Below are positions 2,403-44,822 of a DNA stretch of 64,000 nt, piece after piece (positions within the stretch are counted from its first letter, which is position 1; every line of letters starts with the position of its first letter). Source of the DNA: a virus (Duplodnaviria; Heunggongvirae; Uroviricota; Caudoviricetes); the IMG/VR virus record IMGVR_UViG_3300047472_000248, positions 52,315 through 116,314 of that record; one strand, given 5' to 3'. The notes under the pieces were generated by a model. That model had not been told where the DNA came from and made no database searches. It saw only the letters and a program-made list of their open reading frames with translations. A program made the translations under genes and the position numbers.

Positions 2403-3782
2403 ATGCTGATCGTGCGCGACGCCGCGAGCGTCTACAGGGCCATCGAGAAGATCGCGGCCACCCCGGGGAAGAACGACAAGATTGCCATGGTGAAGGAAGC
2501 CATGGGACAGTCGAAGCTGTTCGTGCGCGCCATCAAGGCCGCGCTCGACCCCTTCATCACCTACGGGATCGCCGCGCTGCCCGCGCGCCCCGATGCAGCC
2601 CCGGGCGCGAACACGCTCGACGAGGAGACCTGGTGGGAGATGCTCGAGCAGCTCGCCACCCGCAAGCTGTCGGGCAACGCAGCCCGCGACGCGGTGGCGC
2701 GCGCCCTCGCGTTTCTCACGCCCGAGAGTGGCGAGCTGCTGCGCCGGATCATCAAGAAGGACCTGCGCGCCGGCTTCAGCGAAGAGACCGTCAATAAGGC
2801 GGTCAAGGGCACGCTCCCGGCCTTCCCCTACATGCGCTGCAGCCTGCCGAAGGACAGCTACATCGAGAAGTGGAACTGGGGCGCTGGCATCGTCGTGCAG
2901 GAGAAGGCAGACGGTGAGTTTGCCAACATCAATCACGAGGTCGGGGGCATTGTGACGATCACGTCGCGCCAGGGCCGACCCATGGATCTCGGCCAGCTGG
3001 GCGCCCTCGTCGATGACATTCTCAACGCCCTGCCTGCCGGCACGCAAACGCATGGCGAGCTCGTCGTCTACCGCGATGGCCAGCCGTTGCCGCGGCAGGA
3101 GTCGAACGGGATCATGAACAGCATCGCGCAAGGCGGCGATCGCCCGCTGGGTCACGAGATTCGCTACCTGGCCTGGGATCAGATTCCCCTGTCAGCCGTG
3201 GTCGCCAAGGGTAAGCATGAAGTGCCGTATCGCGAGCGCCTAAAAGCACTGCTGGTCGGCATCACGGGATACAAGGGCGGCACGTCGACGGTGCGCCTGG
3301 TGCCGACGAAGATCGTTCACTCGAAGGCCGAAGCGCTGGCAATCTACTCGACCTACCTGTCGCAGGGCAAGGAAGGCGCCGTCATCAAGCACCCGCTCGC
3401 CATCTGGAAGGACGGCACCAGCAAGGACCAAGTGAAGTTCAAGCTGGAGGTCGTCGTCGATCTCCGGGTGAAGGGCTTCGTCGAGGGCACGGGCAAATAC
3501 GCCGGCATGCTCGGTGCGTTCGAGATGGAGAGTGAGTGCGGCCTGCTCAAGACGAACGTCAACGGCCGCGGCGACGACATGCGGGCCGCGGTCTGGGCGG
3601 ACAGGGCGGACTGGCTCGACAGCGTGCTTGCGGTGAGGGCCAACTCGATCATGCCGCCCAGGAAGGAGGGCGACCCGCACTCGTTGTTCCTGCCGGTGAT
3701 GGTCGAGCGCCGGACCGACAAGAGCGAAGCGGACACCCTGCAGCGCGTGCGCGAGCAGTTCGAGGCGGCGGTGGCAGCATGA
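2403..3782 (+). CDS. ATP-dependent DNA ligase
   Basis: motif I KADGEFANINHE (KxDG); motif IV-like EGAVIK; OB-fold region; RBS GAAGGAGAAGAC upstream. Confidence 0.8.
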   Translation: MLIVRDAASVYRAIEKIAATPGKNDKIAMVKEAMGQSKLFVRAIKAALDPFITYGIAALPARPDAAPGANTLDEETWWEMLEQLATRKLSGNAARDAVARALAFLTPESGELLRRIIKKDLRAGFSEETVNKAVKGTLPAFPYMRCSLPKDSYIEKWNWGAGIVVQEKADGEFANINHEVGGIVTITSRQGRPMDLGQLGALVDDILNALPAGTQTHGELVVYRDGQPLPRQESNGIMNSIAQGGDRPLGHEIRYLAWDQIPLSAVVAKGKHEVPYRERLKALLVGITGYKGGTSTVRLVPTKIVHSKAEALAIYSTYLSQGKEGAVIKHPLAIWKDGTSKDQVKFKLEVVVDLRVKGFVEGTGKYAGMLGAFEMESECGLLKTNVNGRGDDMRAAVWADRADWLDSVLAVRANSIMPPRKEGDPHSLFLPVMVERRTDKSEADTLQRVREQFEAAVAA

Positions 3783-5733: not shown

Positions 5734-6336
5734 ATGGCGGTCATCACCCTCACGGGCCCGACTTGCGCCGGCAAGTCGACGCTCGAAGCCCTGCTGAGGC
5801 GCACTGGCGTGTTCTGCAACGCAATCTCACACACGACGCGCGCACCGCGGCCGGGCGAGGTTGATGGCCAGGCCTACCACTTCGTCACGCCCCGTGCCTT
5901 TCAGGCACTGCTCGACGCCGGCTGGTTCGTCGAGAAGGTGGACTTCGACGGCAATCGCTACGCGATGAGCAAGGGGGCAATCCGCCATGCACTCGACCAG
6001 GCACGTCACGTCGCGATCGTCGTCGACCCGCACGGCGCCGACCAGATTCAGGCCTGGTGCGAAGAGCAGGGCATCCCGTCGGCGGCCGTCTGGCTCGACA
6101 CCGGCACGGAGACGCAGGCGCTGCGCTTCATGGAGCGCGTCGCGACCACCGACAACCTGGCGCCGCTCGTGACGCGCCTGGCCTCGATGCTCTCGGACGA
6201 GGTGCGCTGGCGCTACTTGGCGTCATCGAACCAGATCAGCCTGGAGCGCACCTACAACCTGCAGCTCTTCGGCATCGACCAGAGCAGGTCTGCCGAGGCC
6301 GTCCGCCTGGTCACCGAGCTCGCCGACAGCCTCTAA
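5734..6336 (+). CDS. gmk: guanylate kinase-like nucleoside monophosphate kinase
   Basis: P-loop GPTCAGKSTL; TTRAPRPGEVDGQAYHFV matches the GMP-kinase TTRxxRxGExDGxxYxF signature. Confidence 0.65.
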   Translation: MAVITLTGPTCAGKSTLEALLRRTGVFCNAISHTTRAPRPGEVDGQAYHFVTPRAFQALLDAGWFVEKVDFDGNRYAMSKGAIRHALDQARHVAIVVDPHGADQIQAWCEEQGIPSAAVWLDTGTETQALRFMERVATTDNLAPLVTRLASMLSDEVRWRYLASSNQISLERTYNLQLFGIDQSRSAEAVRLVTELADSL

Positions 6337-6380: not shown

Positions 6381-7040
6381 ATGCAGCTTCTCAACATCGG
6401 CCGGGTGAGGGATCACCTCGGCCAATCTCCGCTTGTGGACGACCCGCTGTGGGCTTGCGAGTCGCACAAGGTCCAGTCGCGTGACCTGACGATGTTCGTC
6501 GCCCGCTGGGCGGCAAGGGAGCAGGGTCCCATCGCGAACACCGCGATCGGTGTGCTGCAGGCAGAGGCGATCAAAGACATCGTGCGCGGCCGTCTCGGCG
6601 GCACGCTGGCCTGGCTCGACTACCGCATCGACCAGCCGCGCTTCATGGCAGATGAACTGGTCGACGGCCTGGCGCGGCTCCCGCTGCCGCGCCGCGGCGC
6701 CTGCCTATTCGCCCTGGAGGCCAAGATGGGCCTGCAAGACGTCGCCGACCTGACCTGGAAGGACGTGCCGCATCGGACCGAGATCCCGCAGACGGGTCTG
6801 TGCCAGGAGGTGCTGCGCGCCCAGCCGCGGCACATCCGCCTCAGCTACGTGTTCTGGGAGGAGGTCGGCCCGCGCGTCGCCGCGCCGCTGCTCGAGCTGG
6901 ACTACAGCGTCAAGATGGCCTTCGCGTGCGCCTGGCACGAGCTGCAGGAGAACTACGACGCGATGCTGATGGTCGACCGCCAGGCCGACGCTGTGAGCCT
7001 GCTCGAGATCGCAGGCGAGATCCGCCGCGGCGAACTCTAG
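6381..7040 (+). CDS. hypothetical protein
   Basis: 219 aa; RBS GGAGGG; follows TATAAT at 6355. Confidence 0.5.
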   Translation: MQLLNIGRVRDHLGQSPLVDDPLWACESHKVQSRDLTMFVARWAAREQGPIANTAIGVLQAEAIKDIVRGRLGGTLAWLDYRIDQPRFMADELVDGLARLPLPRRGACLFALEAKMGLQDVADLTWKDVPHRTEIPQTGLCQEVLRAQPRHIRLSYVFWEEVGPRVAAPLLELDYSVKMAFACAWHELQENYDAMLMVDRQADAVSLLEIAGEIRRGEL

Positions 7041-7366
7041 GCCCGCGCCGGCCTGGCTGATCCTGCCGTGGCGATCAGGCCGCACGCGGCGATGAGACCG
7101 AGCACCCCGAAGACCATCATCAGGGTGCGCCCGTTCTCAGCCCGCCCCACGCGCGCCATCGAGATCACGCCGCGCTTGTCCAGCGTCTCGGTCAGCGGCA
7201 GCTTCAGGTAAGCCTGGCGCAGCTCGATGTCGCGCTCGTGCTCATCCTGGTAGAACATCTCGGTCACGCGCGAGGTCGGGTCGGCTGACGCGAACTGGAT
7301 GTAGCCGTAGCCCAGCCCGAGGAGGGCGACCAGAAGTAGCAGCGACGCGAATAGCCGAACGTTCAA
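7037..7366 (-). CDS. membrane protein
   Basis: 109 aa with terminal TM helices; RBS GGAGTG upstream on the minus strand. Confidence 0.4.
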   Translation of the reverse strand: MNVRLFASLLLLVALLGLGYGYIQFASADPTSRVTEMFYQDEHERDIELRQAYLKLPLTETLDKRGVISMARVGRAENGRTLMMVFGVLGLIAACGLIATAGSARPARA

Positions 7367-7394
7367 TTTTCACTCCGAGTTGACATAAGAAAGA

Positions 7395-7649
7395 TTAGAG
7401 CGCATCGCCCAGATCGGACATTTCGCGTGCGATCGCCGGCACGAATGCCAGCCATGTCGGCCCAGTTCGATCGATGGCTTCTGCCAGCGTGTAGCCCATG
7501 TCGGCAAGCCAGTCCGGCCGGTTCAGCACGAGCGCGACAGCAACCTTCTCGCCGGTCGACTGCGCGCTCCAGGCATCGCGGCCGCCGCGGCGCGCGTCGT
7601 TGGCTTTACCGAACAGGTGCCGAAACTCGGCGCTCTTGGGGTCGTTCAT
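7395..7649 (-). CDS. hypothetical protein
   Basis: 84 aa; co-oriented with the plasmid-like module. Confidence 0.35.
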   Translation of the reverse strand: MNDPKSAEFRHLFGKANDARRGGRDAWSAQSTGEKVAVALVLNRPDWLADMGYTLAEAIDRTGPTWLAFVPAIAREMSDLGDAL

Positions 7650-7684
7650 GCTGGTGGTAGTTCCAAGGGGCAGATCGCACTATA

Positions 7685-7957
7685 GTGGTCCCTGAATTTC
7701 AACCCGAAACGATGACCGACGAAACCTCCAACCTGGTGCTCGAGCACCTGCGCCACATCCGCGGCAAGGTCGACGCGATCGCCGATGACGTGCAGCTGCT
7801 GAAGACTCGCATGACGTCGATCGAGGCGCAGGTCGCGGGCCTGCACACTCAGGTCGCGCTGGTGCACGGTGACATGGCAACGGTGCATGGTCGAATGGAC
7901 AAGATCGACATTCGCCTGACGCTCATCGAGCGCCGTCTCGAACTGGTCGAGCCGTAG
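7685..7957 (+). CDS. coiled-coil protein
   Basis: 90 aa; heptad-like repeats; overlaps a competing minus-strand ORF (7646-8020). Confidence 0.3.
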   Translation: MVPEFQPETMTDETSNLVLEHLRHIRGKVDAIADDVQLLKTRMTSIEAQVAGLHTQVALVHGDMATVHGRMDKIDIRLTLIERRLELVEP

Positions 7958-7970
7958 CGTCACGGTTGGA

Positions 7971-8771
7971 CTATGCCCGCGACACCATAAGCAGGTCGGT
8001 GCGCGGGTCGATCGCGGCACTCGAGAAGAACCCGGTCTCCACCAGGCGGCCGGCCGCCAGCTTCAGCTTGTAGCGGAACTTGCGCAGCTCGGCGATCTCG
8101 CTGCCGCACAGCTCGTGCAGCTTGGCCACGCTGTAGGGATACGGCTCCGCGTGGGTGATGTAGAAGCTGTGCAGCCACTTGGCCAGGGGCGACAGCTTCA
8201 GCCGCATCTTCCAGTCCAGGCGCGAGTAGGTCGCCGGCCCGAACAGGCTGATGATCTCGCGCTCGAGAAGGATCTCCCACTGCCGCAGGGTCGCCCCGCC
8301 GGCATCCTCCTTCCAGCGAAACGACCGGATCAGCGACCCGGTGTAGTTCTGCCGCGCGCCGGCGCCAGGTAGTTCAACGGTGACGGCCACCGCCGACGCC
8401 TTCAGCCGGTCGAGACAGTCGACCAGGCGCCGGTAGCTCGCGCTGTTCTTCGTCCAGCCCAGCTCGGTGAGCATCGAGTAGGCGGTGAACTGCACGTGCG
8501 TGCCCAGCGGGTGCATCCGGGCGATGTGCAGGATCTGCAGGAAGACATCCTCGTCGTCCTGCCGCAGCTCTTCGCCGGTGTAGGTGATCTCGATCCCACG
8601 CAGCGCCGCGATCGGCCGGCGCTTCAGGTTGTCCCGGGCCCCTGCCCTGACGTTGGCGACATTGAAGAGCGCCGAGCGGGCGAAGCAGTTGGGCAGGCCC
8701 CGAAGGTCGGCCGGCCAGATCGGCAGCTGGTCAGGCGAGACCGTCACGGTTGAACTACGTCGGGCGGGCAT
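7971..8771 (-). CDS. TrfA-like plasmid replication initiator
   Basis: 266 aa; LFNVANVR...LRGIEITYTGEEL...DEDVFLQILHIA resembles the RK2 TrfA family; start abuts the iteron array. Confidence 0.55.
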   Translation of the reverse strand: MPARRSSTVTVSPDQLPIWPADLRGLPNCFARSALFNVANVRAGARDNLKRRPIAALRGIEITYTGEELRQDDEDVFLQILHIARMHPLGTHVQFTAYSMLTELGWTKNSASYRRLVDCLDRLKASAVAVTVELPGAGARQNYTGSLIRSFRWKEDAGGATLRQWEILLEREIISLFGPATYSRLDWKMRLKLSPLAKWLHSFYITHAEPYPYSVAKLHELCGSEIAELRKFRYKLKLAAGRLVETGFFSSAAIDPRTDLLMVSRA

Positions 8772-8824
8772 TCGGGCTCCGGCAGCTGGATGCGCGCGAG
8801 TTTGCCGTCGGGCGCCCTGCCCTG

Positions 8825-8951
8825 TCCATAGCGCAACGGTGACGCTGCATAGTGCAAGGGTGGCGTCTCATAGTCGGAGGGTGACACCAGCGTCCTCTCC
8901 ATAGTCGAAGTGTGACGCCCTCCCCGTTCGAGCCATAGTCGAAGCGTGACG
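8825..8951. repeat. five direct iterons CATAGTCGAAGNGTGACGCC (candidate oriV)
   Basis: copies at ~8825, 8846, 8867, 8898, 8932; 21-22 bp period for the first three; immediately upstream of the TrfA-like gene. Confidence 0.7.
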
Positions 8952-8999
8952 CCCGGCCTGGGCGAACCACCCTTCTAAAAGCTGTCTTTTCTCTGGAGT

Positions 9000-9008
9000 T
9001 ATCCACAG
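9000..9008. promoter_or_regulatory. DnaA box TTATCCACA
   Basis: perfect consensus 9-mer between the iterons and an AT-rich patch (CCATTTATCAG). Confidence 0.5.
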
Positions 9009-9168
9009 GGGCGTAGTCCAACGGTGGCAAAGTTGTCCCGGTTATAGAGGGATTACCATTTATCAGCGGGTCACGGTTGCACTAGGCCGCCGTCACCGTT
9101 GCGCCGTCGCTCGCGCGAAACGGTCACCCTTGCGCCGTGCCTGCATTCTGCCGGGCGTCACGCTTGAA

Positions 9169-9507
9169 CTAGCCCCCTGCCCTCACCCGCTCCATCTTCT
9201 CGGCGATCGCCTCGAGGATGAACCGGTGCATCGACATCGACGGCAGCGTGTGCACCAGGGCCATCAGCTCGAAGTGATCCGTCTCGGGCATCTTCAGGTT
9301 CACCTGCTTGAGCACCCGGGGATTGAGGCCATTTGCAGGCGCTGCAGGCTTCTGTCGCTGGGTGGGTGGCGGGGCTGGCACTGGCGGGGGCTGTGGGGCC
9401 GCGGCGGGCTCTTCCTGGGGCTGGTCGGCCGTCAGGTTGGTCTTCGCCTGCTCGACGAACTCTTCTGGCGTGCGCGGCGGTTTGATTCGGCGCAGCGTCC
9501 CCGTCAT
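9169..9507 (-). CDS. ParG-like ribbon-helix-helix partition / centromere-binding protein
   Basis: 112 aa; disordered Pro/Ala-rich N-terminus and C-terminal RHH-like segment; translationally coupled to parA-like gene. Confidence 0.45.
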   Translation of the reverse strand: MTGTLRRIKPPRTPEEFVEQAKTNLTADQPQEEPAAAPQPPPVPAPPPTQRQKPAAPANGLNPRVLKQVNLKMPETDHFELMALVHTLPSMSMHRFILEAIAEKMERVRAGG

Positions 9508-10163
9508 GCGGCCTCCTTCGCGGTCTCGAACATCTCTTTGTAGAGCCGGCGCATCTCGAACATCGCCTTCTCGTCGCCCTTCCCTTGCTCGGTCACCGCC
9601 AGGCCGTCGCGTGCGGCCCGCCTGAAGGCGACGCGATCGCGCAGCACGGCATCGGCCAGCTGCACGTTCGTCAGGTCGCCCACGACCTCGCGCATGTCGT
9701 CCGCATCGGTCATGGTCGCGTGGGTCGGGGCGCAGTTCACGACCACGTAGGCGCGCAACTTCTGGTTGAAGGTCTGGACGTCGCCCACCACCCGATCGAT
9801 CGCGGCCAGGCCGTGGATGTCGAACTGGCTCGGCCGCGCCGGGATGAGCATCACCTGGGCGACGAGCATGGCCTGGCGCAGCTCGATCGAATCACGGCCG
9901 CCGGCGTCGATGACCACGTCGTCGTAGCGTGGCGAGAGCTTGCGCAGCTCCTCGGTGACGCCCTTCCCTTTCAGCTGGATGCAGCTGATCTTCGGCTCGA
10001 CGCCCTCCTCCGTTCGGATCTCCGCCCATGAGGTGGCGCTCTGTTGCGTGTCGGTGTCGACCAGCAGCACGTCGCGCCCCGCAGCCGCCCGGATGGCCGC
10101 CAGGTTCGTCGCGATCGTCGTCTTGCCAGTGCCGCCCTTCTCTCCGCCAACGAGGACTATCAT
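9504..10163 (-). CDS. parA: ParA/ParF-family partition ATPase
   Basis: deviant Walker A GGEKGGTGKTT; DTD motif; 219 aa, small type-Ib ParA. Confidence 0.8.
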   Translation of the reverse strand: MIVLVGGEKGGTGKTTIATNLAAIRAAAGRDVLLVDTDTQQSATSWAEIRTEEGVEPKISCIQLKGKGVTEELRKLSPRYDDVVIDAGGRDSIELRQAMLVAQVMLIPARPSQFDIHGLAAIDRVVGDVQTFNQKLRAYVVVNCAPTHATMTDADDMREVVGDLTNVQLADAVLRDRVAFRRAARDGLAVTEQGKGDEKAMFEMRRLYKEMFETAKEAA

Positions 10164-10169
10164 GCTCTC

Positions 10170-10410
10170 TCCTATGCTAGGGTATCAAAGCAGATGCCAG
10201 TGCCCCATGGGCTAGGCGATCGCAGGCGATGCCAGCATAGGACAGCGTGGTGTAGGAGAGGATAGCACCCCCTTCCCTGCCCTCGGCTAGGGTTTGCGAT
10301 GCTAGGCTATGCCACCAGACCGATGCATAGCATATGAGAGGGGAGGGTAGGCGACCCTATGCGATGAGCCCGCATGCCACCATAGGCTAGGCTATCGCAG
10401 GCTATGCGAG
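10170..10410. repeat. centromere-like array of short CTAGG / TATGC / GCATAG repeats (candidate parC and par promoter)
   Basis: about 12 degenerate hexamer copies in alternating orientation directly upstream of parA. Confidence 0.5.
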
Positions 10411-10414
10411 GGGC

Positions 10415-10447
10415 ATAAAAAAGGCGCCCACGAGGGGCGCCACTGAG
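10415..10447 (-). terminator. intrinsic terminator downstream of the HTH regulator gene
   Basis: GGCGCCCCTCGTGGGCGCC hairpin followed by TTTTTTAT on the minus strand. Confidence 0.55.
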
Positions 10448-10467
10448 GGGAAGGGGTGGCCTGGAGC

Positions 10468-10977
10468 CTAAGCTGCCTTGCGATGCGACGTGCCCAGCGT
10501 GCGCGCCACTGCAGCATGTGCTGCCTTGCGCTGATCGCGGAGCTTTCGCAGAACAGGGATGAGCGCCTCGACAAAGGCAGGCTCCGCGGCCAGGTCGATG
10601 TCCATGTCCTGCAGCTCGTGGTTCACCAGACGCAGCAGGTTCGCATCCTTCTGCGAGACCATCCGGGTCGTCATGATTTCCTCCAAGGTCTTGTAAGTCT
10701 CGGGGGTGTATTCCTTCATGACCAGGCGAAAGAGATAGACGGGATCGCCGTCGATGGCCTTGCACAGCGCGGCAATCTTGTTGATCGGCAGCTTCATCTC
10801 GCCGGTCTCGATCATCGTCATGATGTTGCCGGTGGCATAGCCGAGCGTGGACGCGACTTCCCTGCGCGTCTTACCGCTGGCATCCATCAGTCGCGCGATG
10901 TAGTCGGAGACGGCGCCCTTGTATCCCCGCTCGCGCTCCTTGACTACCTCCGTCGATCCCTTCTTTTGCGTGGCCAT
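10468..10977 (-). CDS. HTH (XRE-family) transcriptional regulator, candidate repressor
   Basis: helix-turn-helix REVASTLGYATGNIMTMIETGEMKLPINKIAAL; divergent from early operon. Confidence 0.6.
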   Translation of the reverse strand: MATQKKGSTEVVKERERGYKGAVSDYIARLMDASGKTRREVASTLGYATGNIMTMIETGEMKLPINKIAALCKAIDGDPVYLFRLVMKEYTPETYKTLEEIMTTRMVSQKDANLLRLVNHELQDMDIDLAAEPAFVEALIPVLRKLRDQRKAAHAAVARTLGTSHRKAA

Positions 10978-10984
10978 GCTGTTC

Positions 10985-11268
10985 TTCCTTCCTTCAATAA
11001 AGAGGATAAATGACCGCTTGGCGGCCCTGCTTCCCTGTGGGTAGCGAGGGCATTATATGAGAGTCAGCGCTGAGTGATCAGCTCTAGACGTGCCAGATAT
11101 CGGGATTTACCTCTAGAAACTAGGGGGTCGCTTCTATCTGATCAGTCTCCCCTGACTGAGGGTGCACGTCAGACGACACCTACATTCTCCCTATAATGCA
11201 GGGGCTTCGAGACACCCCGTAACCATAGACTGCCAAGCAGTCAGCCCTGACTTAGGAGACATCGACAG
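10985..11268. promoter_or_regulatory. divergent switch region
   Basis: two CTCTAGA repeats; degenerate palindrome AGTCTCCCCTGACT at 11144; TATAAT at 11192; perfect palindrome AGTCAGCCCTGACT at 11239 overlapping RBS TAGGAGA. Confidence 0.55.
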
Positions 11269-11536: not shown

Positions 11537-13762
11537 ATGCGCAAGGACATCATGGTGGTTCGGGAGTCGATCGGAAAGATCGTCACGCTCCTGACGGATC
11601 GCAAGATCAACGTAACACAGCGTGGCACCGACGCATACGTGCGCTACGCTCCGGACGGTCAGGTTCTCCAGCTCAACGTCCCCTACCTGCCCGATGATGC
11701 CGACGATACGCTGATCGCGGCGATCCAGGGCTTTCTGGATCATGAAGTCGGTCACGTTCTGCACACCGACCACAAGGTCGTGGTGTCGGCCGCGAAGCAG
11801 GGCACGCGCATCAAGAAGATGGCCAACCTCGTCGAGGACGTCTACGTCGAGAAGATGATGGCCAAGACATTCCCGGGCAGCGAGTCGAACCTCGAGCGCC
11901 TGCGTGAAGTCTTCCTGAACCGGATGATCAAGCCCGAGCTCGACAAGGCGATCGCCGCGGGCGACACGACCTTCGCGTCTGGCTCGCTGATGATCGTGCA
12001 GTTCCGGGCGTGGGGCGGGCAGCGCGCGTGCGCTGACTTTCTGAAGGCGAAGGCTGCCGTCTACGACCCGCTGCTGGCAGACCTGCGCGACGCCCTGGGC
12101 GCCGACATCGCCGAGCAGCTCGGGCAGACCCGCAGCAGCGCCGACTGCCTGCACCTGGCCAAGCGGGTGATCGCCCGGATCGAACAGTGGGAGGAAGACC
12201 GCAAGAAGAAGGAGATGGAGCGCCGCCGCAAAGAGCGCGAGGCAGCCAAGAAGGAAGAGGAGGAAAAAGAGCCACCGCCGCCGCCCAAGGACGACCCCCG
12301 CGAGGAGTCTGAAGAGCAGCCGCCCAAGGAAGGGGAGGGCGAAGAAGAGCCTCCAGAGGAGGCCGAACCGGGCGAGGGTGGCGAGGGCGAGCCGGCACCC
12401 GAAGAGGGCAGCTCGGAAGAGGAGGGCGAGCCCGCCCCGGGCGACGACGAGGGTGAAGAGCCTGCCCCCAGCGAAGAGCCCACGGAAGAGGGCGCACCGC
12501 CACCCGAACTGAAGCCGTCGGGTGAGGAGTCCGCCGGCGAACCCGAGCCCGGGGAAGAGCCTGAAGAAGATGAGGGTGCCGGCATGGGCGCCAGCGAACC
12601 CGAGCCGACCCCTGAACCCGGGGAGAGCAGTGCGGGCGCTGAGGAGGAGGGTGAGGAGGGTGAGGAGGGCACAGCACCGTCTGAAGAGCCGGCATCGGCG
12701 GCCGCCGAAGAGGGTGGGGAGGAAGAAGAGGAGGAAGACCTCGGTCCCGAGCCGGAACCGTCGTCGCTGCTGCCGGCGCTGGACGAAGCCGAGGGGACCG
12801 ACTTCAGCAAGGATCTGGCCAAGATTCTGGGCGAGGATTCCCGAGAGACTATGGTCAAGTCGGACTACTGCATCTTCTCCACCGAGTGGGACAAGGTCGA
12901 GATCTTCGAGCCGCCCGGCGCGGTGCCCGACCGCCAGGTCACCGACCTGGTGGAGACCACGACGTCGATGGTGGGCGTCATGGCCAAGAACCTCGAGCGC
13001 GCGATCGCCGCGATGACCAAGGTCGCCTGGAACCCCGGGCTGCGCCGCGGCCGCATCAACCCGTCCGCCCTGGCCAAGTCGGGCGTGGGCGACGATCGTC
13101 TCTTCCGCAAGCGCTACGAGCACCGGGCGAAGGACACGGCGGCGACCCTGCTGATCGACTGCTCCGGGTCGATGCAGGGCCCGAAGATGCGCACCGCTGC
13201 GCTGGCGGGCTACGCGCTGTCGATGGTGCTGGAGCGCCTTCGTGTGCCGCACGAGGTGGTGGGGTTCACGACGAGGATCTCCACCGAGATGGAGGCGGCA
13301 CTCGACCGTGAGCGTCGCAGTCACGGACGCTCCGTGAACTATTCGCGGGACGAGTCGCTCTACATGCCGATCTTCAAGGAATTCCACGAGCGGGTGACGG
13401 CAGTCGTCACGCGCCGTATGGCTTACCTGGTCCCTGGCTACCCCGAGGGCGTGATGCGGAACAACGTCGACGGCGAGAGCGTGCAGATCGCTGCGCATCG
13501 CCTGCGCCAGCAGCGTGCCAGTCGGCACGTCCTGATGGTGCTGTCGGATGGGCGGCCGGCCTGCTCGCCAGGCTATGGGCTGAACGAGCACCTGCAGAAG
13601 GTCGTTCGGAACGTCGAAGCGAGCGGCATCGATGTCATCGGCATCGGCATCGGCACCTCGGTCGTCGAGCAGTTCTATCCACGCAACGTCGTGGTCGACG
13701 ACATCAAGGAACTGCCGCAGGTCGTCATCAGCCAACTCGGAAAGTTGCTCTTGGCTGTGTGA
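11537..13762 (+). CDS. CobT-like von Willebrand factor A protein with long acidic E/P/G-rich linker
   Basis: C-terminal MIDAS LLIDCSGSM; ~250-aa low-complexity poly-E/P region; RBS AAGGGGAG; 11402 is the ORF-track start, 11537 is the preferred ATG. Confidence 0.6.
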   Translation: MRKDIMVVRESIGKIVTLLTDRKINVTQRGTDAYVRYAPDGQVLQLNVPYLPDDADDTLIAAIQGFLDHEVGHVLHTDHKVVVSAAKQGTRIKKMANLVEDVYVEKMMAKTFPGSESNLERLREVFLNRMIKPELDKAIAAGDTTFASGSLMIVQFRAWGGQRACADFLKAKAAVYDPLLADLRDALGADIAEQLGQTRSSADCLHLAKRVIARIEQWEEDRKKKEMERRRKEREAAKKEEEEKEPPPPPKDDPREESEEQPPKEGEGEEEPPEEAEPGEGGEGEPAPEEGSSEEEGEPAPGDDEGEEPAPSEEPTEEGAPPPELKPSGEESAGEPEPGEEPEEDEGAGMGASEPEPTPEPGESSAGAEEEGEEGEEGTAPSEEPASAAAEEGGEEEEEEDLGPEPEPSSLLPALDEAEGTDFSKDLAKILGEDSRETMVKSDYCIFSTEWDKVEIFEPPGAVPDRQVTDLVETTTSMVGVMAKNLERAIAAMTKVAWNPGLRRGRINPSALAKSGVGDDRLFRKRYEHRAKDTAATLLIDCSGSMQGPKMRTAALAGYALSMVLERLRVPHEVVGFTTRISTEMEAALDRERRSHGRSVNYSRDESLYMPIFKEFHERVTAVVTRRMAYLVPGYPEGVMRNNVDGESVQIAAHRLRQQRASRHVLMVLSDGRPACSPGYGLNEHLQKVVRNVEASGIDVIGIGIGTSVVEQFYPRNVVVDDIKELPQVVISQLGKLLLAV

Positions 13763-13811: not shown

Positions 13812-13877
13812 GCCGAGAACCAGAGCGCATAGTTCGTTCTGTCGCATTTAGCTAAACCTTTTTTGGGGAGCACCTTT

Positions 13878-15086
13878 ATGAGCGAAGTCGCCACCGTCGA
13901 AGAACTCGACACCCGGATCAGCTGCGAAATCTGTGGTGCCAAGTGCCACGGCATTCAGACGCACCTGAAGGATGATCACGCCGACTGGACATTGGCACGC
14001 TACGAGAAGGAGTTCCCCGGCAAGCCGCTGCTCTCCGAGCTGGCCAAGATGAAACTCGCCGAGCACCAGGCCGCAAAGAAGGCTGCCGCAAACCCGGCGT
14101 CGTCATCAGTCAGCACTGACTCGAAGCAGCGCGCTGAGACGAAGTTCTTCCATGAAGTCTTCGGGCTGGGCATGGTGCCGGCGGCGCTCAGCACCCCGTC
14201 GAAGGACGGGAAAAAGAAGGCACGGCCGATCCCGATCACGACGCTGATCAACACGCCGGAATCGCAGCCGATGGTGCCGGCGATCGACCCGAACTACGTC
14301 TTCAACCTCGACGTCCTCAAGAGCGTGATGCTTGCCGCCGAGATGGGCGTCGCGGCCTATCTCTGGGGCCACGCCGGCACGGGGAAGACCTCCCTGTTCG
14401 AGCAGCTGTTCGCGCGGACCAACCGCCCGATGATCCGGGTGCAGCACACCGCCAACATGGAAGAGTCGCACATCGTCGGCCAGTGGGTGCTGCGTGAGGG
14501 CGAGACGGTGTTCGAACTCGGCCCGCTGCCGCTGGCCATGATCAATGGGTGGGTCTACCTCGCCGACGAATACGACTTCGGCCGCCCCGAGGTGCTGTCG
14601 GTCTACCAGGCCGTGCTCGAGGGCAAGGCGCTGGTGATCAAGGAAGCTGACGCGAAGAACCGCGTCATCAAGCCGCACCCGAACTTCCGCTTCGTCGCGA
14701 CGGGCAACACCAACGGCACGGGCGACGAGTCGGGCCTGTATTCGGGCACGAACATCCAGAACGCCGCCAACTACGAGCGCTTCGCCATCGTCGAGCGCAT
14801 GCCCTACATGGAGCCCGAGCTGGAGGCACGCCTCGTGTCGCAGCAGGCCGCCATCGCGATTCTCGACGCGCGCAAGCTGGTCGACTACGCCGGGCGCATC
14901 CGCACCGAGTTCGACAACGGCAAGGTGACCTCGCCGATCTCCCCGCGCTCGCTGATCTACGCCGGGAAGATCGGGATGATCCGCGCCAACTACCGCATCG
15001 GCCTCGAGAAGGCCTACATCAACCGCCTGTCCTCGGTCGACCGAGAGACGGCATTGCAATTCGCCCAGCGCGTTTTCGGAGCTTGA
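13878..15086 (+). CDS. AAA+ ATPase, CobS/MoxR-like
   Basis: Walker A GHAGTGKTS, Walker B-like VYLADEYD; N-terminal Cys/His cluster CEICGAKCHGIQTH. Confidence 0.65.
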   Translation: MSEVATVEELDTRISCEICGAKCHGIQTHLKDDHADWTLARYEKEFPGKPLLSELAKMKLAEHQAAKKAAANPASSSVSTDSKQRAETKFFHEVFGLGMVPAALSTPSKDGKKKARPIPITTLINTPESQPMVPAIDPNYVFNLDVLKSVMLAAEMGVAAYLWGHAGTGKTSLFEQLFARTNRPMIRVQHTANMEESHIVGQWVLREGETVFELGPLPLAMINGWVYLADEYDFGRPEVLSVYQAVLEGKALVIKEADAKNRVIKPHPNFRFVATGNTNGTGDESGLYSGTNIQNAANYERFAIVERMPYMEPELEARLVSQQAAIAILDARKLVDYAGRIRTEFDNGKVTSPISPRSLIYAGKIGMIRANYRIGLEKAYINRLSSVDRETALQFAQRVFGA

Positions 15087-15742
15087 GCATGACGGCAGTA
15101 ACCAAAGAGCAGTTCGCCAACGACGGCAGCTATGAGTCGGTCGAGCGCATGTTGCGCCAGCTGGCGGGCAAGTGCTTCAAGCGCGTGTCGGGCATGGGTC
15201 TTTCGATGGACTTCGATGACTGCATGGGCATCATGAACGTCGGCTATGCCGAGTCCCTGCGCACCTGGGACCCCGAGAAGTCCAAGTTCGCGACGTGGTG
15301 CCAGTTCGTCGGGCTGCAGCACTTCAACCGCGCGATCGCGAAGGAAGAGCGCGAACGTGCCGAGATGGGCATGGTGTCCTTCACCGACATCATGGGCTCG
15401 AGCGAGGAGGGCAGCGACGACTTCACCGAGTTCTTCGCGGCCGCCGAGTCCGATGCAGAAGAGGCGCCCGACGAGCGACGGGCCCGGTTCGAGCTGAACA
15501 TGGAGCGTCTGCGCACGCTGTCGCCGGCGGCCAAGCGCCTGGTCAAGGCGCTGATCGAGTCGGAGATGGCCGTCAGCCGCGAGATCGTCACGCTGCACAG
15601 CCTGACCCAAGCCCTGGGCATGGACCCCAAGACCGTCTCCGGCGTCTGCCGTGAGCTGAAGCACGTCTACAGCCTGACGAACCTGCGTGTGGTCGCGCCG
15701 GCCAGGCCGAAGGGCGAAGCGCAGGAGCAGACCGCGGCGTGA
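15083..15742 (+). CDS. sigma-70-family-like RNA polymerase sigma factor
   Basis: region-2-like FATWCQFVGLQHFNRAIAKEER (cf. FxTYAxWWIRQAIxRAI); C-terminal HTH-like region 4. Confidence 0.45.
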   Translation: MSMTAVTKEQFANDGSYESVERMLRQLAGKCFKRVSGMGLSMDFDDCMGIMNVGYAESLRTWDPEKSKFATWCQFVGLQHFNRAIAKEERERAEMGMVSFTDIMGSSEEGSDDFTEFFAAAESDAEEAPDERRARFELNMERLRTLSPAAKRLVKALIESEMAVSREIVTLHSLTQALGMDPKTVSGVCRELKHVYSLTNLRVVAPARPKGEAQEQTAA

Positions 15743-16329: not shown

Positions 16330-16575
16330 ATGTCAGAAGTCACGATCACCATGCCCAAGGAACTCACGGGCGAAATGCTGCGCGCGGTGCGTGAGCATCC
16401 ACTCACGAAGGTCGAAGACCGCGACGAGATGAACCTGCGCATCGGCTGGCTGATCTGCGCCTGGGACGTGCTCGCGGAGCACCGCCGGCCGCCACCCGTG
16501 CCGTATCGACCGCCACAGCCGACCCCACTGGGGGCGATTCCCAACGATCCGAGAGTGAAGTGGTCCTGGAAATGA
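16330..16575 (+). CDS. hypothetical protein
   Basis: 81 aa; RBS AGAGACTGCCCCT; ATGA overlap with dnaE start. Confidence 0.45.
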   Translation: MSEVTITMPKELTGEMLRAVREHPLTKVEDRDEMNLRIGWLICAWDVLAEHRRPPPVPYRPPQPTPLGAIPNDPRVKWSWK

Positions 16576-19500
16576 ACCCCCTTCAGATCGCCCCATCGAT
16601 TCGCTCCGACTTCTCGATCGGCGAATCCTCTGCGCAGATCCCGAAGCTGGTCGACCGCGCGAAGGAGCTGGGCTACAAGGCGCTCGCGCTCGTGGACACC
16701 ATGAGCGTCTCGTCGATGCCCAAGTTCGCCAGCGCGTGCAAGAAGGCCGAGATCAAGCCCATCGTTGGCTGCACCGTCCGGGTCGTCAACGATCCCGCCG
16801 AGCGGGTGAAGGACCGCGAGAATGGCGGCTACCGCCTGAAGGTCTACGTCAAGACCGAGCGGGGCCTGCAGTCGCTCTACCGGTTGCTGACGACGGCGCT
16901 CCAGCCCGACCACTTCTACTATCACAGCCGCTGCTCGCTCGACGAGGTCCTGCAGCTCGAGGACGTGATCGTCACCACGGGCGACATGCACAACCTCTGG
17001 CACCGGCAGGACGCGGCCGCGATCGACAGCCACCTGATTCACCGCTTTGGGAACGACTACGGGGTGGAGCTGGTCGCGCTGAAGACGCCACTCTTCGACC
17101 GCCTGAACCGCACCGCCTGGGAAGTGGCACAGTCTCAAAGCCGCAACATCATCGTCACCCGGCCGGTCTTCTACCTCACGCCGGAGGATGCCGACAGCAC
17201 CGACGTGCTGCGGGCGATCTCGTCCAACACGTCGGTCGACAGCATCTTCCTCCCGCAGCCCTACGTGCGCGACATGGCGCTGCTCGACCCCAAGGACTAC
17301 CTGAAGCACCTGCAGGCGCTCGACGAGACGCTGGGCGCCAAGGTGGCAAGCCGCGGGCTGCACCACGTCAAGGGCATCGCCGACAACTGCACCTACGAAT
17401 TCAAGAAGCTCCCACCCTCCATGCCCAAGATGGCAGAGGACGAGTTCGTCACTCTCTGCGGCATCGTGCGCGACGGCTGGACCGAACGCTTCTCGAAGAC
17501 CGTCTGGGGCCACGCGCCGGCGCCCGCCGAGCTGCAGGTCTACAAGGACCGCCTCAGCTTCGAGCTGAGCGTCCTGAAGAAGATGGGCTTCAGCGGCTAC
17601 TTCCTGCTGGTGCACGACATCGTCCAGTGGTCGAAGGACAACGGCATCCGCGTGGGCCCCGGGCGGGGCTCCGCCGGCGGCAGTCTGGTCGCCTACCTCA
17701 TGGGGATCACTGACCTCGACCCCGTGCGCTTCGACCTCCTGTTCGAGCGCTTCATCAATCCCGACCGGATCGACTTGCCCGACGCCGACCTCGACTTCAT
17801 GTCCGGGCGCCGGCACGAGGTGATCGAATACATCACCAACAAGTGGGGCAAGGATCACGTCGCGGGCATCGTCAACTTCTCCACCCTGGGCGCTGCGTCT
17901 GCGCTGCGCGACAGCGCGCGCCTGCACGGCCTGAAGCCCTACGAGTATTCGTGCTCGAAGCAGATGGAGAAGGAGCACGGGGTCGCGCTCAGCCTCGAGA
18001 AGTCCGCCGAGCTGGTGCCCGACATCGAGAAATTCAAGCTGGACCGCCCGGTGATATGGAACCACGCGGTGCGCATCGAGGGCGCCAACCGCAACCTCTC
18101 GCAGCACGCCGCGGGCGTGGTCGTCGCCGGCGAGCCGATCGTCAACCGGGCGGTGGTCTCCACCCAGCCGGGGCACGCGGTCATCCAGTGGGACAAGAGC
18201 CAGGTCGAAGAGTTCGGCCTGATCAAGATGGACATCTTGGGCCTGACGACGCTCGACGTGATCGATGCGATCCTCACCTACGTGAAGGAGCGCCATCACA
18301 AGACGATCGACACGCTGCGGCTGCCGCTCGACGACGACAAGACCCTGAAGGCATTCGCCAAGGGCGACACCGTGGGGGTGTTCCAGTTCACGGGGTCGGG
18401 CATGCGCAAGCTGCTCAAAGAGATGGCGATGGGCGGGCCGCTGACGTTCGACGATGCGTGCGCTGCCACCGCGCTGTTCCGGCCGGGCCCGCTCGACGCC
18501 GGCCTGTGTGACCGCTACGTTCAGGTGAAGCAGGGAGCCGCGACGCCCTACTACGAGCACCCCGCGCTCGAGGAGTGCCTCAGCGACACCTTCGGCGTGA
18601 TCGTCTACCAGGAGCAGGTCATGAAGATCTGCCGGGTGCTCTGCGGGTTTACCCCGGGTGAAGCCGACGGTGTGCGCAAGGCCATCGGGAAGAAAGACCC
18701 GGTGAAGATGGCCGAATACGGGGAGCAGTTCGTCGCCGGCGCCGTCAAGGCAGGCATGGACAGCTTCCGCGCCGAGGCGCTTTGGGAGCAGATTCTGGGC
18801 TTCGCGGGCTACGCCTTCAACAAGTCGCACAGCTACGCCTACACGCTGCTCAGCTACACCACCATGTGGCTGAAGGTGAACTACCCGCTGGAGTTCTTCG
18901 CGGGCTCGCTGTCGGTGGTCGACGACTCGGACGCCCAGGCGATCCTGATCGCCGACGCGCAGAGCAGGGGCATCCGTGTGCTGCCGCCCGACGTGAACTA
19001 CAGCAGCGCGCGCATCGAGATCAAGGGCGAGGACGAACTCTACGCGCCGCTGCAGGCCGTCAAGGGCATCAGCAGCAACGTCGCCGCGTCGATCCTGAAG
19101 CTGCGCGAGGCCACCTCGGAGCACGTCCACGTCGGGCCGCCCGTGGTCAGAACGAAATCCCCGCTGACGATGACGGACTTCGATCCGGCGCGCCAGAAGG
19201 AGATTTTGGGGCGGGTCAAGGTCAACGCCGCGCACCGCGCTGCGCTCGATAAGGTGGGCGGGTTCTTCTCGATCACCGGTGGCGTGCCCCCGACGCACCC
19301 TGACCGCTTGCGCGACCGACTGGCACTCATGCCCGGGTTCACCGTCGAGACGGTGAAGGCCGATCGGAAGCTCACCGTCGAGCACCTGGCCAAGATCAAG
19401 ATCACCCGCCTGGTGGAAGAGGCGCGGACCTGCGAGGGCTGCTCGTTCAAGGGCAAGACGCACCCCGTGGTCCGCATGGGCGACGCGCCGAAGTTCATGC

Positions 19501-19961
19501 TGGTCTTCGACACCCCGAGCTACCAGGACGACCGGGCGGGCAAACTGCTCGCAGAGGGGAGCGACGAGCGCCCGGGCAACTACGAGGTCGTGCGCGCCGC
19601 GCTGAAGGGCATTGGGCTTCGGGTCGGCGACGGCTACTACACCGCGCTGGTGAAGGCCGCGAAGAACAAGGGCCAGAAGGAGCTGACGAACGAGCAGATC
19701 AACGGGTGCAGCAAGTTCCTGATGGAGGAGATTGCGATCCTGAAGCCGCCCGTCATCGTCGCCATGGGGAGCAATGCGGTGCGCTTCTTCGCGCCGGGTA
19801 TCAAGGGCTCGCCGGCTGACCTCGCCGGCAAGGCCATCTATCGCAGCGATCTGGACGCAACCGTCATCTTCGGCATCAACCCGGCGTCGCTGTTCTTCGA
19901 CCCGAGCAAAGAGGCGCTGATCGTTGCGGCATTCGACAAACTGGGCGAGCTTTTGAGCTGA
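16572..19961 (+). CDS. dnaE: DNA polymerase III alpha (DnaE-type) with C-terminal family-4-UDG-like domain
   Basis: PHP domain; [17 protein letters not shown]...[26 protein letters not shown]...DLDF polymerase core; C-terminal CEGCSF...FDTPS...[21 protein letters not shown]...GINPAS parallels UDG family 4 with GEAPG replaced. Confidence 0.85.
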   Translation: [1129 protein letters not shown]

Positions 19962-20472: not shown

Positions 20473-21006
20473 ATGAGCGACGACGCCGTCATCAAGTCAT
20501 TCATCGACCTCGCGCAGATGCGCCAGGACATCGCGATCAACCCGACCGACCTGACGACCGCGCTGCAGCAGCACGCGAGCCTGGCGGTGACCTACGGCCT
20601 GGCCGCGCAAGACGCCCGCCGCCAGCACGAGCGCTGGAAGACGGCACTCGAGCTGCTGGAAGCCAAGCTCGATGCCGAGCACCGGGCGACGCTGAAGGAA
20701 GAGAACCCGAAGACCACCGAGGCACAGGTCCGCTCGGCCGTCGTGAGCGACGCCCGCTGGCGCAGCGCCCAGACCCGCGTGATCGACGCGCAGCACCACT
20801 TCCGGCAGTGCGAGGTCGTCTACTCCAACTTCTCCCAGCGCGGCGACATGCTGCTGCAGATGGCCCGTGACTCCGCCCGGGAAATGGCCGGTGGCAGCGT
20901 CCGTATGCAGGTAGTGGCCGGCGCCATCGCGAACGGTTCGGACGGTCGTCAGCGCATGCTCGACAAGATGCAGGCGAATCGCGAAACTGCCACAGCTTCG
21001 ACTTAG
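20473..21006 (+). CDS. coiled-coil protein
   Basis: 177 aa. Confidence 0.5.
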   Translation: MSDDAVIKSFIDLAQMRQDIAINPTDLTTALQQHASLAVTYGLAAQDARRQHERWKTALELLEAKLDAEHRATLKEENPKTTEAQVRSAVVSDARWRSAQTRVIDAQHHFRQCEVVYSNFSQRGDMLLQMARDSAREMAGGSVRMQVVAGAIANGSDGRQRMLDKMQANRETATAST

Positions 21007-21012
21007 CCAGTA

Positions 21013-21031
21013 AGTCAGGACTGACTATAAT
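21013..21031 (+). promoter_or_regulatory. GTAAGTCAGGACTGACTATAAT
   Basis: canonical unit before the SSB-like gene. Confidence 0.6.
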
Positions 21032-21086
21032 CTAAGCGTGCAGATAGCACACTCAGAAAACTACCCACCACAGGAAATCAGCAACC

Positions 21087-25398: not shown

Positions 25399-25870
25399 CA
25401 CCAAGATCGGCGAGGCCAAGCCCGACCCCTCGGGGCTGTGGACGTCCCGGGTGGTCCGCCGCGATCGCAAGTTCTACGGCGAGATTCGCAGCTACAAGCG
25501 GGTCAAGCTGGCCGTCTACTGGGCGCACCGCCGCACCGACGAGGAGTTCAGGGAGCTGGAGGCCTGGGCGGTCGATGTCGACACGATCGCCGCCTTGAAG
25601 TCCTACGCGGTGACGCACGTCGGCATCCTGGTCGAAGACGGCCGCCGCTACCTCGCGCCAATCAGTCTCTTCGGCCCCGCGGGCAAGGACGTGGGCGTGC
25701 AGGTGCTCGACTACTCCAAAGCGAAGGGCAGGGCACCCGGGGCGAAGGGTAAGTTCGGCGCGCTGCAGTATTACGTGCCGATCGCGCTGTTCAAGGCGCA
25801 CATCCCACCCATCGAGACGCGCGAAGAGACGCTCTTGGAGCGCATGCGTATTTCTGCTCGAAAGAGGTAG
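25391..25870 (+). CDS. hypothetical protein
   Basis: 159 aa. Confidence 0.45.
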   Translation: MADTKIGEAKPDPSGLWTSRVVRRDRKFYGEIRSYKRVKLAVYWAHRRTDEEFRELEAWAVDVDTIAALKSYAVTHVGILVEDGRRYLAPISLFGPAGKDVGVQVLDYSKAKGRAPGAKGKFGALQYYVPIALFKAHIPPIETREETLLERMRISARKR

Positions 25871-25897
25871 TCAGTCCTGACTTAGTCTACCTATAAT
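25869..25897 (+). promoter_or_regulatory. AGTCAGTCCTGACT + 9 nt + TATAAT
   Basis: GTAGTCAGTCCTGACTTAGTCTACCTATAATG. Confidence 0.55.
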
Positions 25898-25920
25898 GTG
25901 ACCTCATTGATACCAACCAG

Positions 25921-44627: not shown

Positions 44628-44821
44628 AGCGCTACGCACTCTTCGCAGGCGACCACTACTACCCGAGCGGAGGTTGGCACGACTTCGCAGGGTTCTTCGA
44701 CTCGCCCGGGCAAGCGAAGGCCCGTGCCTCCAAGCTGCCCCGAGAGCCATGGGAACGTGCGGACGACAAATGGTGGCACATCGTCGATCTTCAAACGGGC
44801 GAAATCATCGAGAAGGACTGA
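44624..44821 (+). CDS. hypothetical small protein
   Basis: 65 aa. Confidence 0.35.
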   Translation: MKRYALFAGDHYYPSGGWHDFAGFFDSPGQAKARASKLPREPWERADDKWWHIVDLQTGEIIEKD

Positions 44822-44822
44822 T

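Follow-up and report, generated by a model that had tools for sequence, protein, structure and literature searches.

The replication initiator and its iterons

The 64,000-nucleotide (nt) stretch analysed here, called the window below, covers positions 52,315 to 116,314 of the IMG/VR virus record IMGVR_UViG_3300047472_000248, which is assigned to the Caudoviricetes. The window is 64.4% GC, and nearly all of its genes lie on the plus strand except for a minus-strand block at 7037–10977, in which a gene for a replication initiator of the TrfA family, a set of repeats and two putative partition genes are found. This cassette, and the site that it occupies in a lineage of related phages, is the subject of the present analysis. 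A sequence-only reading of 7037–11268 had described a plasmid-type replicon and partition cassette embedded in a phage-like genome, and its individual claims are taken up below with the results that bear on them. The features of the replication part are as follows.

7971–8771, minus strand: trfA, replication initiator of the TrfA family, 266 amino acids (aa), matching Pfam TrfA, with GGAG about 6 nt 5' of the ATG
7956–7975, minus strand: inverted iteron on the trfA stop codon (30 bits)
8368–8387, plus strand: iteron within the trfA coding sequence (25.5 bits)
8740–8759, minus strand: inverted iteron over trfA codons 5–11 (27.5 bits)
8827–8953, plus strand: five direct 20-bp iterons CATAGTnnAAnnGTGACGCC, starting at 8827, 8848, 8869, 8900 and 8934 (spacing 21, 21, 31 and 34)
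8965–9066, no strand assigned: origin core, comprising an AT-rich segment, the DnaA box, an iteron at 9012–9031 (plus strand) and a second AT-rich segment at 9030–9066
9067–9173, minus strand: inverted iteron set of three to four copies, including 9067–9086, 9089–9108 (weak) and 9154–9173

The product of 7971–8771 had been called a TrfA-like Rep protein, and the profile search that had been suggested for it bore this out: the protein matched Pfam TrfA (PF07042) with an E value of 5.8e-39 and a score of 134.3 bits (cutoff 22), the match spanning profile positions 39–274 of 282. Its identity to annotated plasmid TrfA proteins is 46–55%, and homologues were detected in 681 plasmid records and in none of 50,697 phage records. 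Among the related elements described below, designated by L numbers, pairwise identity to the window TrfA was 63% for L083, 59% for L016, 57% for L019 and 49% for L015; the corresponding values were 55–56% for the Polaromonas plasmid pH6NP1, 53–54% for a Comamonadaceae plasmid and 48–49% for a Cupriavidus plasmid. Because these pairwise identities interleave (49–63%), the phage-borne TrfA proteins, as judged from their sequences, fall within the diversity of Burkholderiales plasmid TrfA proteins.

The five 20-bp iterons reported previously were recovered, with four matches to the consensus at up to three mismatches where 0.02 were expected. A matrix scan of the whole 64 kb located 11 strong and one or two weak iteron copies, all inside 7956–9173; the strong copies scored 21–30 bits, and the best score outside this interval was 12 bits. 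Since the matrix derives from these very copies, the informative part of the scan is the lack of matches elsewhere in the window. The motif GTCACGGTTGNACTA, which occurs eight times against 0.28 expected, had been taken for a second repeat family bracketing the Rep gene, but it is the reverse complement of the iteron core TAGTnnAAnnGTGAC and hence the same iteron reversed; all copies, when set in one orientation, have cATAGTnnAAsnGTGACGcc in common. The inverted copy at 9154–9173 overlaps the stop codon of the gene at 9169–9507. Because the inverted iteron at 8740 and the direct copy at 8827 bracket the ribosome-binding and promoter region of trfA, the 8740 iteron is likely to belong to a site of autoregulation.

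The perfect DnaA box placed at 9000 by the sequence-only reading lies at 8999–9007 (TTATCCACA) and is the sole perfect copy in the 64-kb window (0.08 expected); GTTATCCACAGG or ATTTCCACAGG is kept at the equivalent origin position in relatives. The AT-rich patch described along with it is present but modest, with a GC content of 52–57% over 100 nt against a mean of 64%. The lowest 30-nt value, 33% GC at 8973–9002, is among the lowest 0.8% of 30-nt windows in the whole stretch. About 12 iterons, a DnaA box and this AT-rich minimum of 33% GC, the components looked for in the cognate origin of a TrfA initiator, are thus all found here.

The Cupriavidus plasmid, the Comamonadaceae plasmid, L015, L016, L019 and L083 share this origin layout, with differing iteron sequences. 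In L015–L017, L019 and L083, iterons in two orientations surround one or two DnaA boxes and an AT-rich stretch with TAATC repeats, and L083 has the iteron core of the window; the Comamonadaceae plasmid, an ordinary plasmid, has GTTATCCACAGG upstream of trfA together with iterons in both orientations, five direct and five inverted. When compared with window positions 8955–9066 and with the Cupriavidus plasmid (L001, 14780–14872), the origin core (the DnaA box and the AT-rich CTAATC...TCTCTAA) was found to be reversed relative to trfA and the partner gene of parA in L015 (690–800) and L016 (715–830), which may reflect an inversion between the oppositely oriented iteron sets.

The replicon resembles the TrfA-oriV system of RK2/RP4 (IncP-1) in sharing the initiator family (Pfam TrfA), the window initiator being about the size of TrfA-33, and in having clustered iterons about 21–22 bp apart, one or more DnaA boxes and an AT-rich region. 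In RK2, trfA and the origin are separate, whereas in the window trfA directly abuts its origin. The window further differs in that its iterons form two inverted sets around the DnaA box and in that a KorA/KorB-type regulon is lacking; moreover, the window element is a phage, whereas RK2/RP4 is a conjugative plasmid.

Partition genes and the pentamer lattice

Upstream of trfA in the direction of its transcription, the block continues with the following features.

9169–9507, minus strand: putative centromere-binding protein, 112 aa, with a predicted ribbon-helix-helix fold; the gene adjoins parA
9504–10163, minus strand: parA, small Walker-type partition ATPase, 219 aa (Pfam AAA_31, CbiA and MipZ)
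10162–10415, no strand assigned: candidate centromere/operator-like lattice of about 50 head-to-tail degenerate pentamers, recognised by its 5-bp periodicity

The ParA/ParF ATPase gene proposed earlier is represented by 9504–10163, whose product matched the ParA models of Pfam and NCBIfam (ParA_partition, E value of 1.5e-44). The protein has a deviant Walker A motif, GGEKGGTGKT, at residues 6–15 and no N-terminal DNA-binding (helix-turn-helix, HTH) domain, and is 30–35% identical to ParA of the phage-plasmids KS14 and D6. The stop codon of parA and the start codon of the 112-aa open reading frame (ORF) overlap in an ATGA at 9504–9507, an arrangement by which the two genes appear to be translationally coupled.

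The gene at 9169–9507 had been read as encoding a ParG-like ribbon-helix-helix protein; the fold is upheld by prediction, but membership of the ParG sequence family was rejected, as the profile search suggested for it came back empty (no Pfam match even at E values up to 10). The protein likewise gave no match in NCBIfam or PHROGs, no sequence or profile match in the PDB to any ribbon-helix-helix protein, and no tblastn match in plasmids. Its family is small: a search of 5.8 billion clustered proteins gave three homologues, and one of 1.84 billion proteins gave 28 representatives. The family alignment shows a conserved N-terminal M-S-x-x-F-R-R/K, a variable proline/alanine-rich linker and a conserved C-terminal block, LNPRVMKQVNxxMPExxHxxLKxLVxxMPxMSMRKFILEAIxEK. 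An AlphaFold model made with four sequences was too weak for use (predicted local distance difference test, pLDDT, 60.7), and the model used was based on the 31-sequence alignment, in which residues 70–110 have a pLDDT of about 97 and form an extended segment followed by two helices. The model predicts a ribbon-helix-helix fold, and the protein is putatively ParG-like in function. An hhalign comparison with approximate ribbon-helix-helix sequences gave alignments that were in register but weak; for ParG, p was 0.008, which is not significant and is given as a lead only.

A centromere-like array of about 12 hexamers (CTAGG/TATGC/GCATAG) had been noted. An array is indeed located upstream of parA, but its unit is not a hexamer: the sequence is a strict 5-bp lattice of about 50 pentamers of the pattern (C/A/G)(T/G/C)A(G/T)(G/C), for example CTAGG, CTATG and CGATG. 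Within 10162–10415 the motif CTA[GT]GC occurs seven times in direct orientation, against 0.1 expected, and twice inverted, and a single 5-bp phase is shared by all nine direct motif starts. Self-similarity of the lattice reached z = 3.7–7.1 at each multiple of 5 up to 60 and was negative at nearly all other lags; no such 5-bp pattern was detected in a coding-sequence control or in the origin. When the period-5 score was calculated in 150-nt windows, the lattice scored 0.12–0.19, the top value in the 64 kb, versus a mean of −0.004 (standard deviation 0.018) for the rest of the window. Tandem Repeats Finder misses the lattice.

Four relatives have such a lattice upstream of parA, among them the Cupriavidus plasmid (L001, 16124–16520), L054 (8313–8660) and L045 (5214–5480). 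The arrays are 250–400 bp long, with 50–80 tandem pentamers, and the pentamer sequence differs from element to element; that of the Cupriavidus plasmid consists of about 80 units of the CATAT/GATTT type and gave z = 6.9–9.0 at all multiples of 5.

The whole arrangement resembles type Ib partition systems (TP228 ParF-ParG-parH, pB171 par2 and pSM19035 delta/omega), in which ParA is small and without an N-terminal DNA-binding domain, the next gene encodes a small protein whose N-terminal tail is disordered and whose C-terminal domain is a ribbon-helix-helix (predicted in the window), and a repeat array, here a candidate for both centromere and operator, lies 5' of the operon. parH of TP228 has been described as about 100 bp of degenerate tetramer boxes with AT-rich spacers (PMC3130281), whereas the array of the window extends over 250 bp and keeps strictly to a period of 5 bp. 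No centromere with a 5-bp period was found in the literature searched.

The HTH gene and the divergent promoter region

10468–10977, minus strand: XRE/HTH_31 regulator, 169 aa, kept beside the CobT-like gene
10423–10441, minus strand: predicted intrinsic terminator of the HTH gene, GGCGCCC-loop-GGGCGCC followed by TTTTTT
10978–11268, no strand assigned: divergent promoter/operator region with palindromes and TATAAT-type boxes

The terminator mentioned in the sequence-only reading was located with its T-run at 10423–10441 and, as its position suggests, would insulate parA from read-through. The region 10978–11268 contains three AGTCAG-N3-CTGACT-like palindromes (11062–11075, 11143–11157 and 11238–11252) that look like repressor operators, together with a CTATAAT at 11192–11198 facing right and a minus-strand TATAAT at about 11046–11051 facing left. 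The palindromes and the CTATAAT of this region of about 290 bp are kept in the Cupriavidus plasmid, L019 and L083, and the HTH gene itself is kept next to the CobT-like gene in relatives regardless of what the neighbouring slot contains. The HTH regulator is divergent from the early operon, as had been stated, but we rejected its inclusion in the plasmid cassette, the gene being present also in integrase-bearing relatives and in those with an empty slot. Because the gene is kept whatever the slot holds, because the terminator separates it from parA, and because the palindromes and the CTATAAT are conserved, we assign it to the phage; it is probably the immunity switch, a repressor of the early lytic replication operon.

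The variable slot in related elements

A nucleotide search with the 4.2-kb region returned only short pieces of 66–80% identity and no close relative in phage or plasmid collections; the matches were all in plasmids, except for one 117-nt phage match. Relatives were gathered from genomes and from IMG/VR (80 loci) with the CobT-like protein as anchor, and the window proteins were mapped onto them. Related elements include two Cupriavidus metallidurans plasmids on which trfA is annotated, NZ_CP083720.1 (107,329 bp, circular, from a complete genome) and NZ_CP090528.1 (106 kb). In NZ_CP083720.1 the genes for ligase and TrfA (minus strand), a 670-bp origin, a 147-aa ORF (minus strand) homologous to the 112-aa protein, parA (minus strand), a 440-bp gap and the HTH gene (minus strand) follow each other in the same order as in the window, and the divergent CobT-like, MoxR and DnaE genes come after the HTH gene. 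The gap upstream of parA holds the 5-bp lattice, and the origin holds a DnaA-like box. The two elements nevertheless differ considerably: protein identities are 34–53% (TrfA 48–49%, ParA 38%, DnaE 53%); the iteron of the plasmid, TCGTGCTTCTASCGATG, is unrelated and is present in 12 direct and four to five inverted copies flanking an AT-rich stretch with ATTTCCACAGG; its pentamers, CATAT and GATTT, are unrelated to those of the window; and the three small ORFs of the window at 7037–7957 are absent or different. Virion genes are also present on the Cupriavidus plasmid, namely those for terminase, portal, major capsid, tape-measure and tail proteins, and its annotation includes no integrase. The same arrangement was seen in three short metagenome contigs (L015–L017), beside the guanylate kinase gene or the HTH and CobT-like genes, and two IMG/VR contigs, L019 (110 kb) and L083, carry TrfA in the slot.

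The flanks of the slot are conserved, with genes for primase, ligase, guanylate kinase and a 219-aa protein on the left and the HTH (minus strand), CobT-like, MoxR and DnaE genes on the right. The content of the slot varied as listed here for the 57 IMG/VR loci in which it is covered; some of the contigs are near-duplicates, and the counts are indicative only.

TrfA and ParA: 2 of 57 loci
ParA with another or unrecognised initiator: 20 of 57 loci
Integrase: 6 of 57 loci, with 3 more at contig edges outside the 57 (9 viral contigs)
None (gap below 1.2 kb): 9 of 57 loci
Unclassified: 20 of 57 loci

Ten ORFs located between the left anchor and ParA were compared with Pfam; six matched HTH_36/DnaD_N winged-helix families, two Rep_3 and one RepA_C, and one had no match. 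By position and domain, the HTH_36/DnaD_N winged-helix proteins are candidate initiators. In the integrase-bearing relatives the integrase is in exactly this slot, and none of them has a replicon there. In a 113-kb Massilia contig the integrase gene is flanked by the 219-aa gene and the HTH gene, and in a Paraburkholderia genome bin (L010, 5717–7616) the order is uvrC, tRNA-Gly, tRNA-Gly, tRNA-Cys, tyrosine integrase, HTH and CobT-like. Because the integrase, HTH and CobT-like genes directly follow uvrC and the tRNA genes, the gene order identifies the Paraburkholderia locus as an integrated prophage. The integrase of L010 faces the tRNAs, of which tRNA-Cys is likely to be the putative attB. 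Since integrase and replicon thus never occur together in the slot of these relatives, the window appears to hold the episomal version of a module whose place is taken by an integrase elsewhere in the lineage. For P1-like elements, conversions among phage-plasmids, integrative prophages and plasmids are on record (PMC10879196).

The lineage was placed with the DnaE protein, which in tblastn searches was 53% identical to that of the 106–107-kb circular C. metallidurans plasmids, 47% to that of Acinetobacter baumannii plasmids of about 111 kb, 42% to that of Rhizobium phage RHEph10, 40% to those of Pseudomonas phage nickie and Stenotrophomonas phages, and 36.5% to that of SSU5. Pfeifer et al. 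(2021) defined the Acinetobacter AB group and related it to the SSU5 supercommunity, related RHEph10 to the known phage-plasmid pLM21S1, and reported that in all these groups the phage genes are conserved and the plasmid genes variable (PMC7969092). The SSU5/pHCM2 supercommunity, the AB group and RHEph10/pLM21S1 resemble the window element as siphovirus-type phage-plasmids of about 100–115 kb that share its complement of CobT-like, MoxR, DnaE, ligase and recombinase genes; they differ from it in that DnaE identity is only 36–47%, and the relation to these groups is one of single-protein identities. By gene content, the window would be the half concerned with DNA metabolism in a phage of about 110 kb related to the AB group, RHEph10 and SSU5 phage-plasmids.

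Other features of the window

The left side of the slot contains three further small ORFs.

7037–7366, minus strand: 109-aa ORF with hydrophobic ends, GC content at third codon positions (GC3) 0.89; first left-side gene of the variable slot
7395–7649, minus strand: 84-aa plasmid-associated conserved hypothetical protein, assigned by DNA homology
7685–7957, plus strand: 90-aa coiled-coil ORF with weak matches to coiled-coil families, GC3 0.81

The 109-aa ORF had no Pfam or NCBIfam match and is absent from the integrase-type relatives. The 84-aa ORF is about 74% identical at the DNA level to hypothetical genes on many Comamonadaceae and Burkholderiales plasmids (Variovorax, Polaromonas, Acidovorax); Acidovorax pYSCONJ carries its homologue two genes downstream of a rep gene, and another was found in one human-gut phage contig. 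These homologues point to a Burkholderiales host, and a high-GC betaproteobacterium is the probable host of the window element. Every ORF of the cassette is intact, with a high GC3.

PHROG and Pfam matches gave the following assignments in the remainder of the window.

196–1287: DNA primase
2403–3782: ATP-dependent DNA ligase
5734–6336: guanylate kinase
11537–13762, plus strand: CobT-like VWA protein
13863–15086: MoxR/CobS-like ATPase
15083–15742, plus strand: sigma-70 region-2 protein, 219 aa (Sigma-70 region 2 match, E value of 3e-5), between MoxR and DnaE
16560–19961: DnaE-type polymerase
21087–22100: single-stranded DNA-binding protein (SSB)
22170–23135: exonuclease
23158–24201: UvsX/RecA-like recombinase
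27467–30552: SbcCD
32480–34819: ribonucleotide reductase
36751–37671: thymidylate synthase
44724–46073: RtcB

Genes matching phage protein families (PHROGs) thus flank trfA and parA on both sides, in keeping with the earlier description of a cassette set between phage-type replication and recombination genes. No integrase domain was detected in the window ORFs tested, as that description had also stated, and the window contains no tRNA gene and no Rfam RNA family. The 15083–15742 protein of the early operon may be a phage-encoded sigma factor. In the CobT-like VWA protein (741 aa), residues from about 235 to 425 form a linker of about 190 aa with an extremely high content of Glu, Pro and Gly; an acidic linker of similar kind occurs in the Cupriavidus homologue, and the window protein matches PHROG 1576 from end to end. 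The 100-nt stretches of lowest GC content (41–46% versus 64%) are intergenic within plus-strand operons, at 62500–62650, 25826–25950 and 20976–21125. At the end of the window (63982–63996) there is a run of about 17 G followed by CCCC, and independent Logan contigs of the element break exactly there; the run may be an assembly-breaking homopolymer or the genome end.

Discussion

The results described above make it very probable that the 3.4-kb segment 7037–10467 is a self-contained plasmid-maintenance module in a temperate phage of about 110 kb, belonging to the broad lineage that includes the AB group, RHEph10 and SSU5. In its host the phage is most likely maintained as a low-copy plasmid, that is, as a phage-plasmid. 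The sequence-only reading had proposed such an extrachromosomal prophage, and the comparison with relatives strengthens the proposal through the syntenic circular Cupriavidus plasmid and the occurrence of an integrase in the same slot. In the scheme that follows, every biochemical step, like the plasmid state of the element, is inferred, the starting points being the observed homology, anatomy, architecture and slot conservation. By analogy with RK2, TrfA would bind the approximately 12 iterons that flank the DnaA box and the AT-rich stretch and, together with host DnaA, would melt the AT-rich DNA and recruit the host helicase, leading to theta replication. The inverted iterons at the start and stop of trfA and the copy inside the gene could serve in autoregulation and in copy-number control by handcuffing. 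As in type Ib ParF/ParG systems, the ribbon-helix-helix protein would coat the 5-bp lattice, which would act as both centromere and operator; its flexible, arginine-containing N-terminal tail would stimulate the small ParA ATPase, and ParA would move plasmid copies apart over the nucleoid. The HTH repressor would silence the divergent early operon encoding CobT, MoxR, the sigma-like protein and DnaE, and, because the repressor would keep this operon silent, the phage's own replisome would be used only for lytic growth.

Several observations weigh against this interpretation. A sigma-70 scan gave no credible promoter for trfA or parA, and the AT-rich region appears weak for an unwinding element. 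ParA scored 152 bits, below the 180-bit equivalog cutoff of ParA_partition, and by this measure is a member of the ParA superfamily but not a curated ParA_partition equivalog, while the searches described found no protein of known function related in sequence to its 112-aa partner. L019 and L083, the two closest TrfA-bearing relatives, lack the lattice, as do 17 other ParA-bearing relatives. Finally, no virion gene was found in the 64-kb window.

The last point, which extends to structural and lysis genes in general, would also be expected if the element were now only a plasmid, either a defective phage-plasmid or a plasmid that has retained phage DNA-metabolism genes and forms no virions, and P1-like phage-plasmids often decay to plain plasmids (Pfeifer and Rocha, 2024; PMC10879196). 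Nevertheless, the window matches just the DNA-metabolism half of its relatives, and in the Cupriavidus plasmid the other half is a complete virion module. A protein identical to the product of 9169–9507 is encoded on a 116-kb contig, complete relatives being 104–113 kb, and no insertion sequence elements or pseudogenes were seen in the window. We therefore regard the loss of the phage state as unlikely. A remnant cassette, carried as inert cargo by a phage that integrates by means of an integrase encoded outside the window, is hardly to be believed, even though about 45% of the presumed genome lies outside the window and integrase-bearing relatives exist: every such relative has its integrase in this same slot and has no replicon, whereas the slot here contains an intact replicon with all repeats preserved and with trfA, the partner gene and parA at full length relative to their homologues. 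Because the cassette is intact and occupies the one lysogeny-module site of the lineage, we do not consider it a remnant.

The position of the cassette among replication genes could, on the other hand, be taken to mean that TrfA and the iterons constitute the lytic replication origin rather than an origin for maintenance of the prophage as a plasmid, and N15 does use a single initiator in both states. This we judge very improbable. Relatives that have the same primase, ligase, DnaE, SSB and recombinase genes carry no initiator in the slot (the nine gaps below 1.2 kb, and others with an integrase), and lytic replication of the backbone would for this reason be independent of TrfA. Furthermore, TrfA always occurs together with the ParA partition system, which makes sense only for a low-copy plasmid state, and the 50,697 phage records searched contain no TrfA homologue.

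Maintenance of the phage as a low-copy plasmid by the TrfA/ParA cassette brings together components that are already known, namely phage-plasmids, TrfA replicons and ParA/ribbon-helix-helix partition systems, and a syntenic relative is present in public plasmid databases. The new points are the TrfA replicon in this lineage, the single slot that holds any of several replicons or an integrase, and the 5-bp lattice with its rare partner protein. Among papers in which "phage-plasmid" and "TrfA" both occur, none carries one or the other term in its title or in its abstract. One could go further and envisage that the strict 5-bp arrays are a new centromere architecture read by a new, rare ribbon-helix-helix family, and that the slot beside the repressor gene is dedicated to the mode of lysogeny, with several replicon types (TrfA, Rep_3, RepA_C and a probable winged-helix HTH_36/DnaD_N initiator) or a tyrosine integrase repeatedly exchanged there; we offer this double proposal tentatively, as it is rather less probable than its failure in one part or the other.

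Genes pass between phages and plasmids by way of phage-plasmids, which automated annotation often classes simply as plasmids. The element described here extends the lineage related to the AB group, RHEph10 and SSU5 into high-GC betaproteobacteria, with a replicon of the TrfA type, and its 5-bp lattice is an unusually regular candidate centromere. A single slot beside a repressor gene, holding one of several unrelated replicons or an integrase, gives a testable picture of how the mode of lysogeny changes; if the slot does have the dedicated role tentatively envisaged above, the lineage would lend itself naturally to the study of how phages switch between the episomal and the integrative form of lysogeny.

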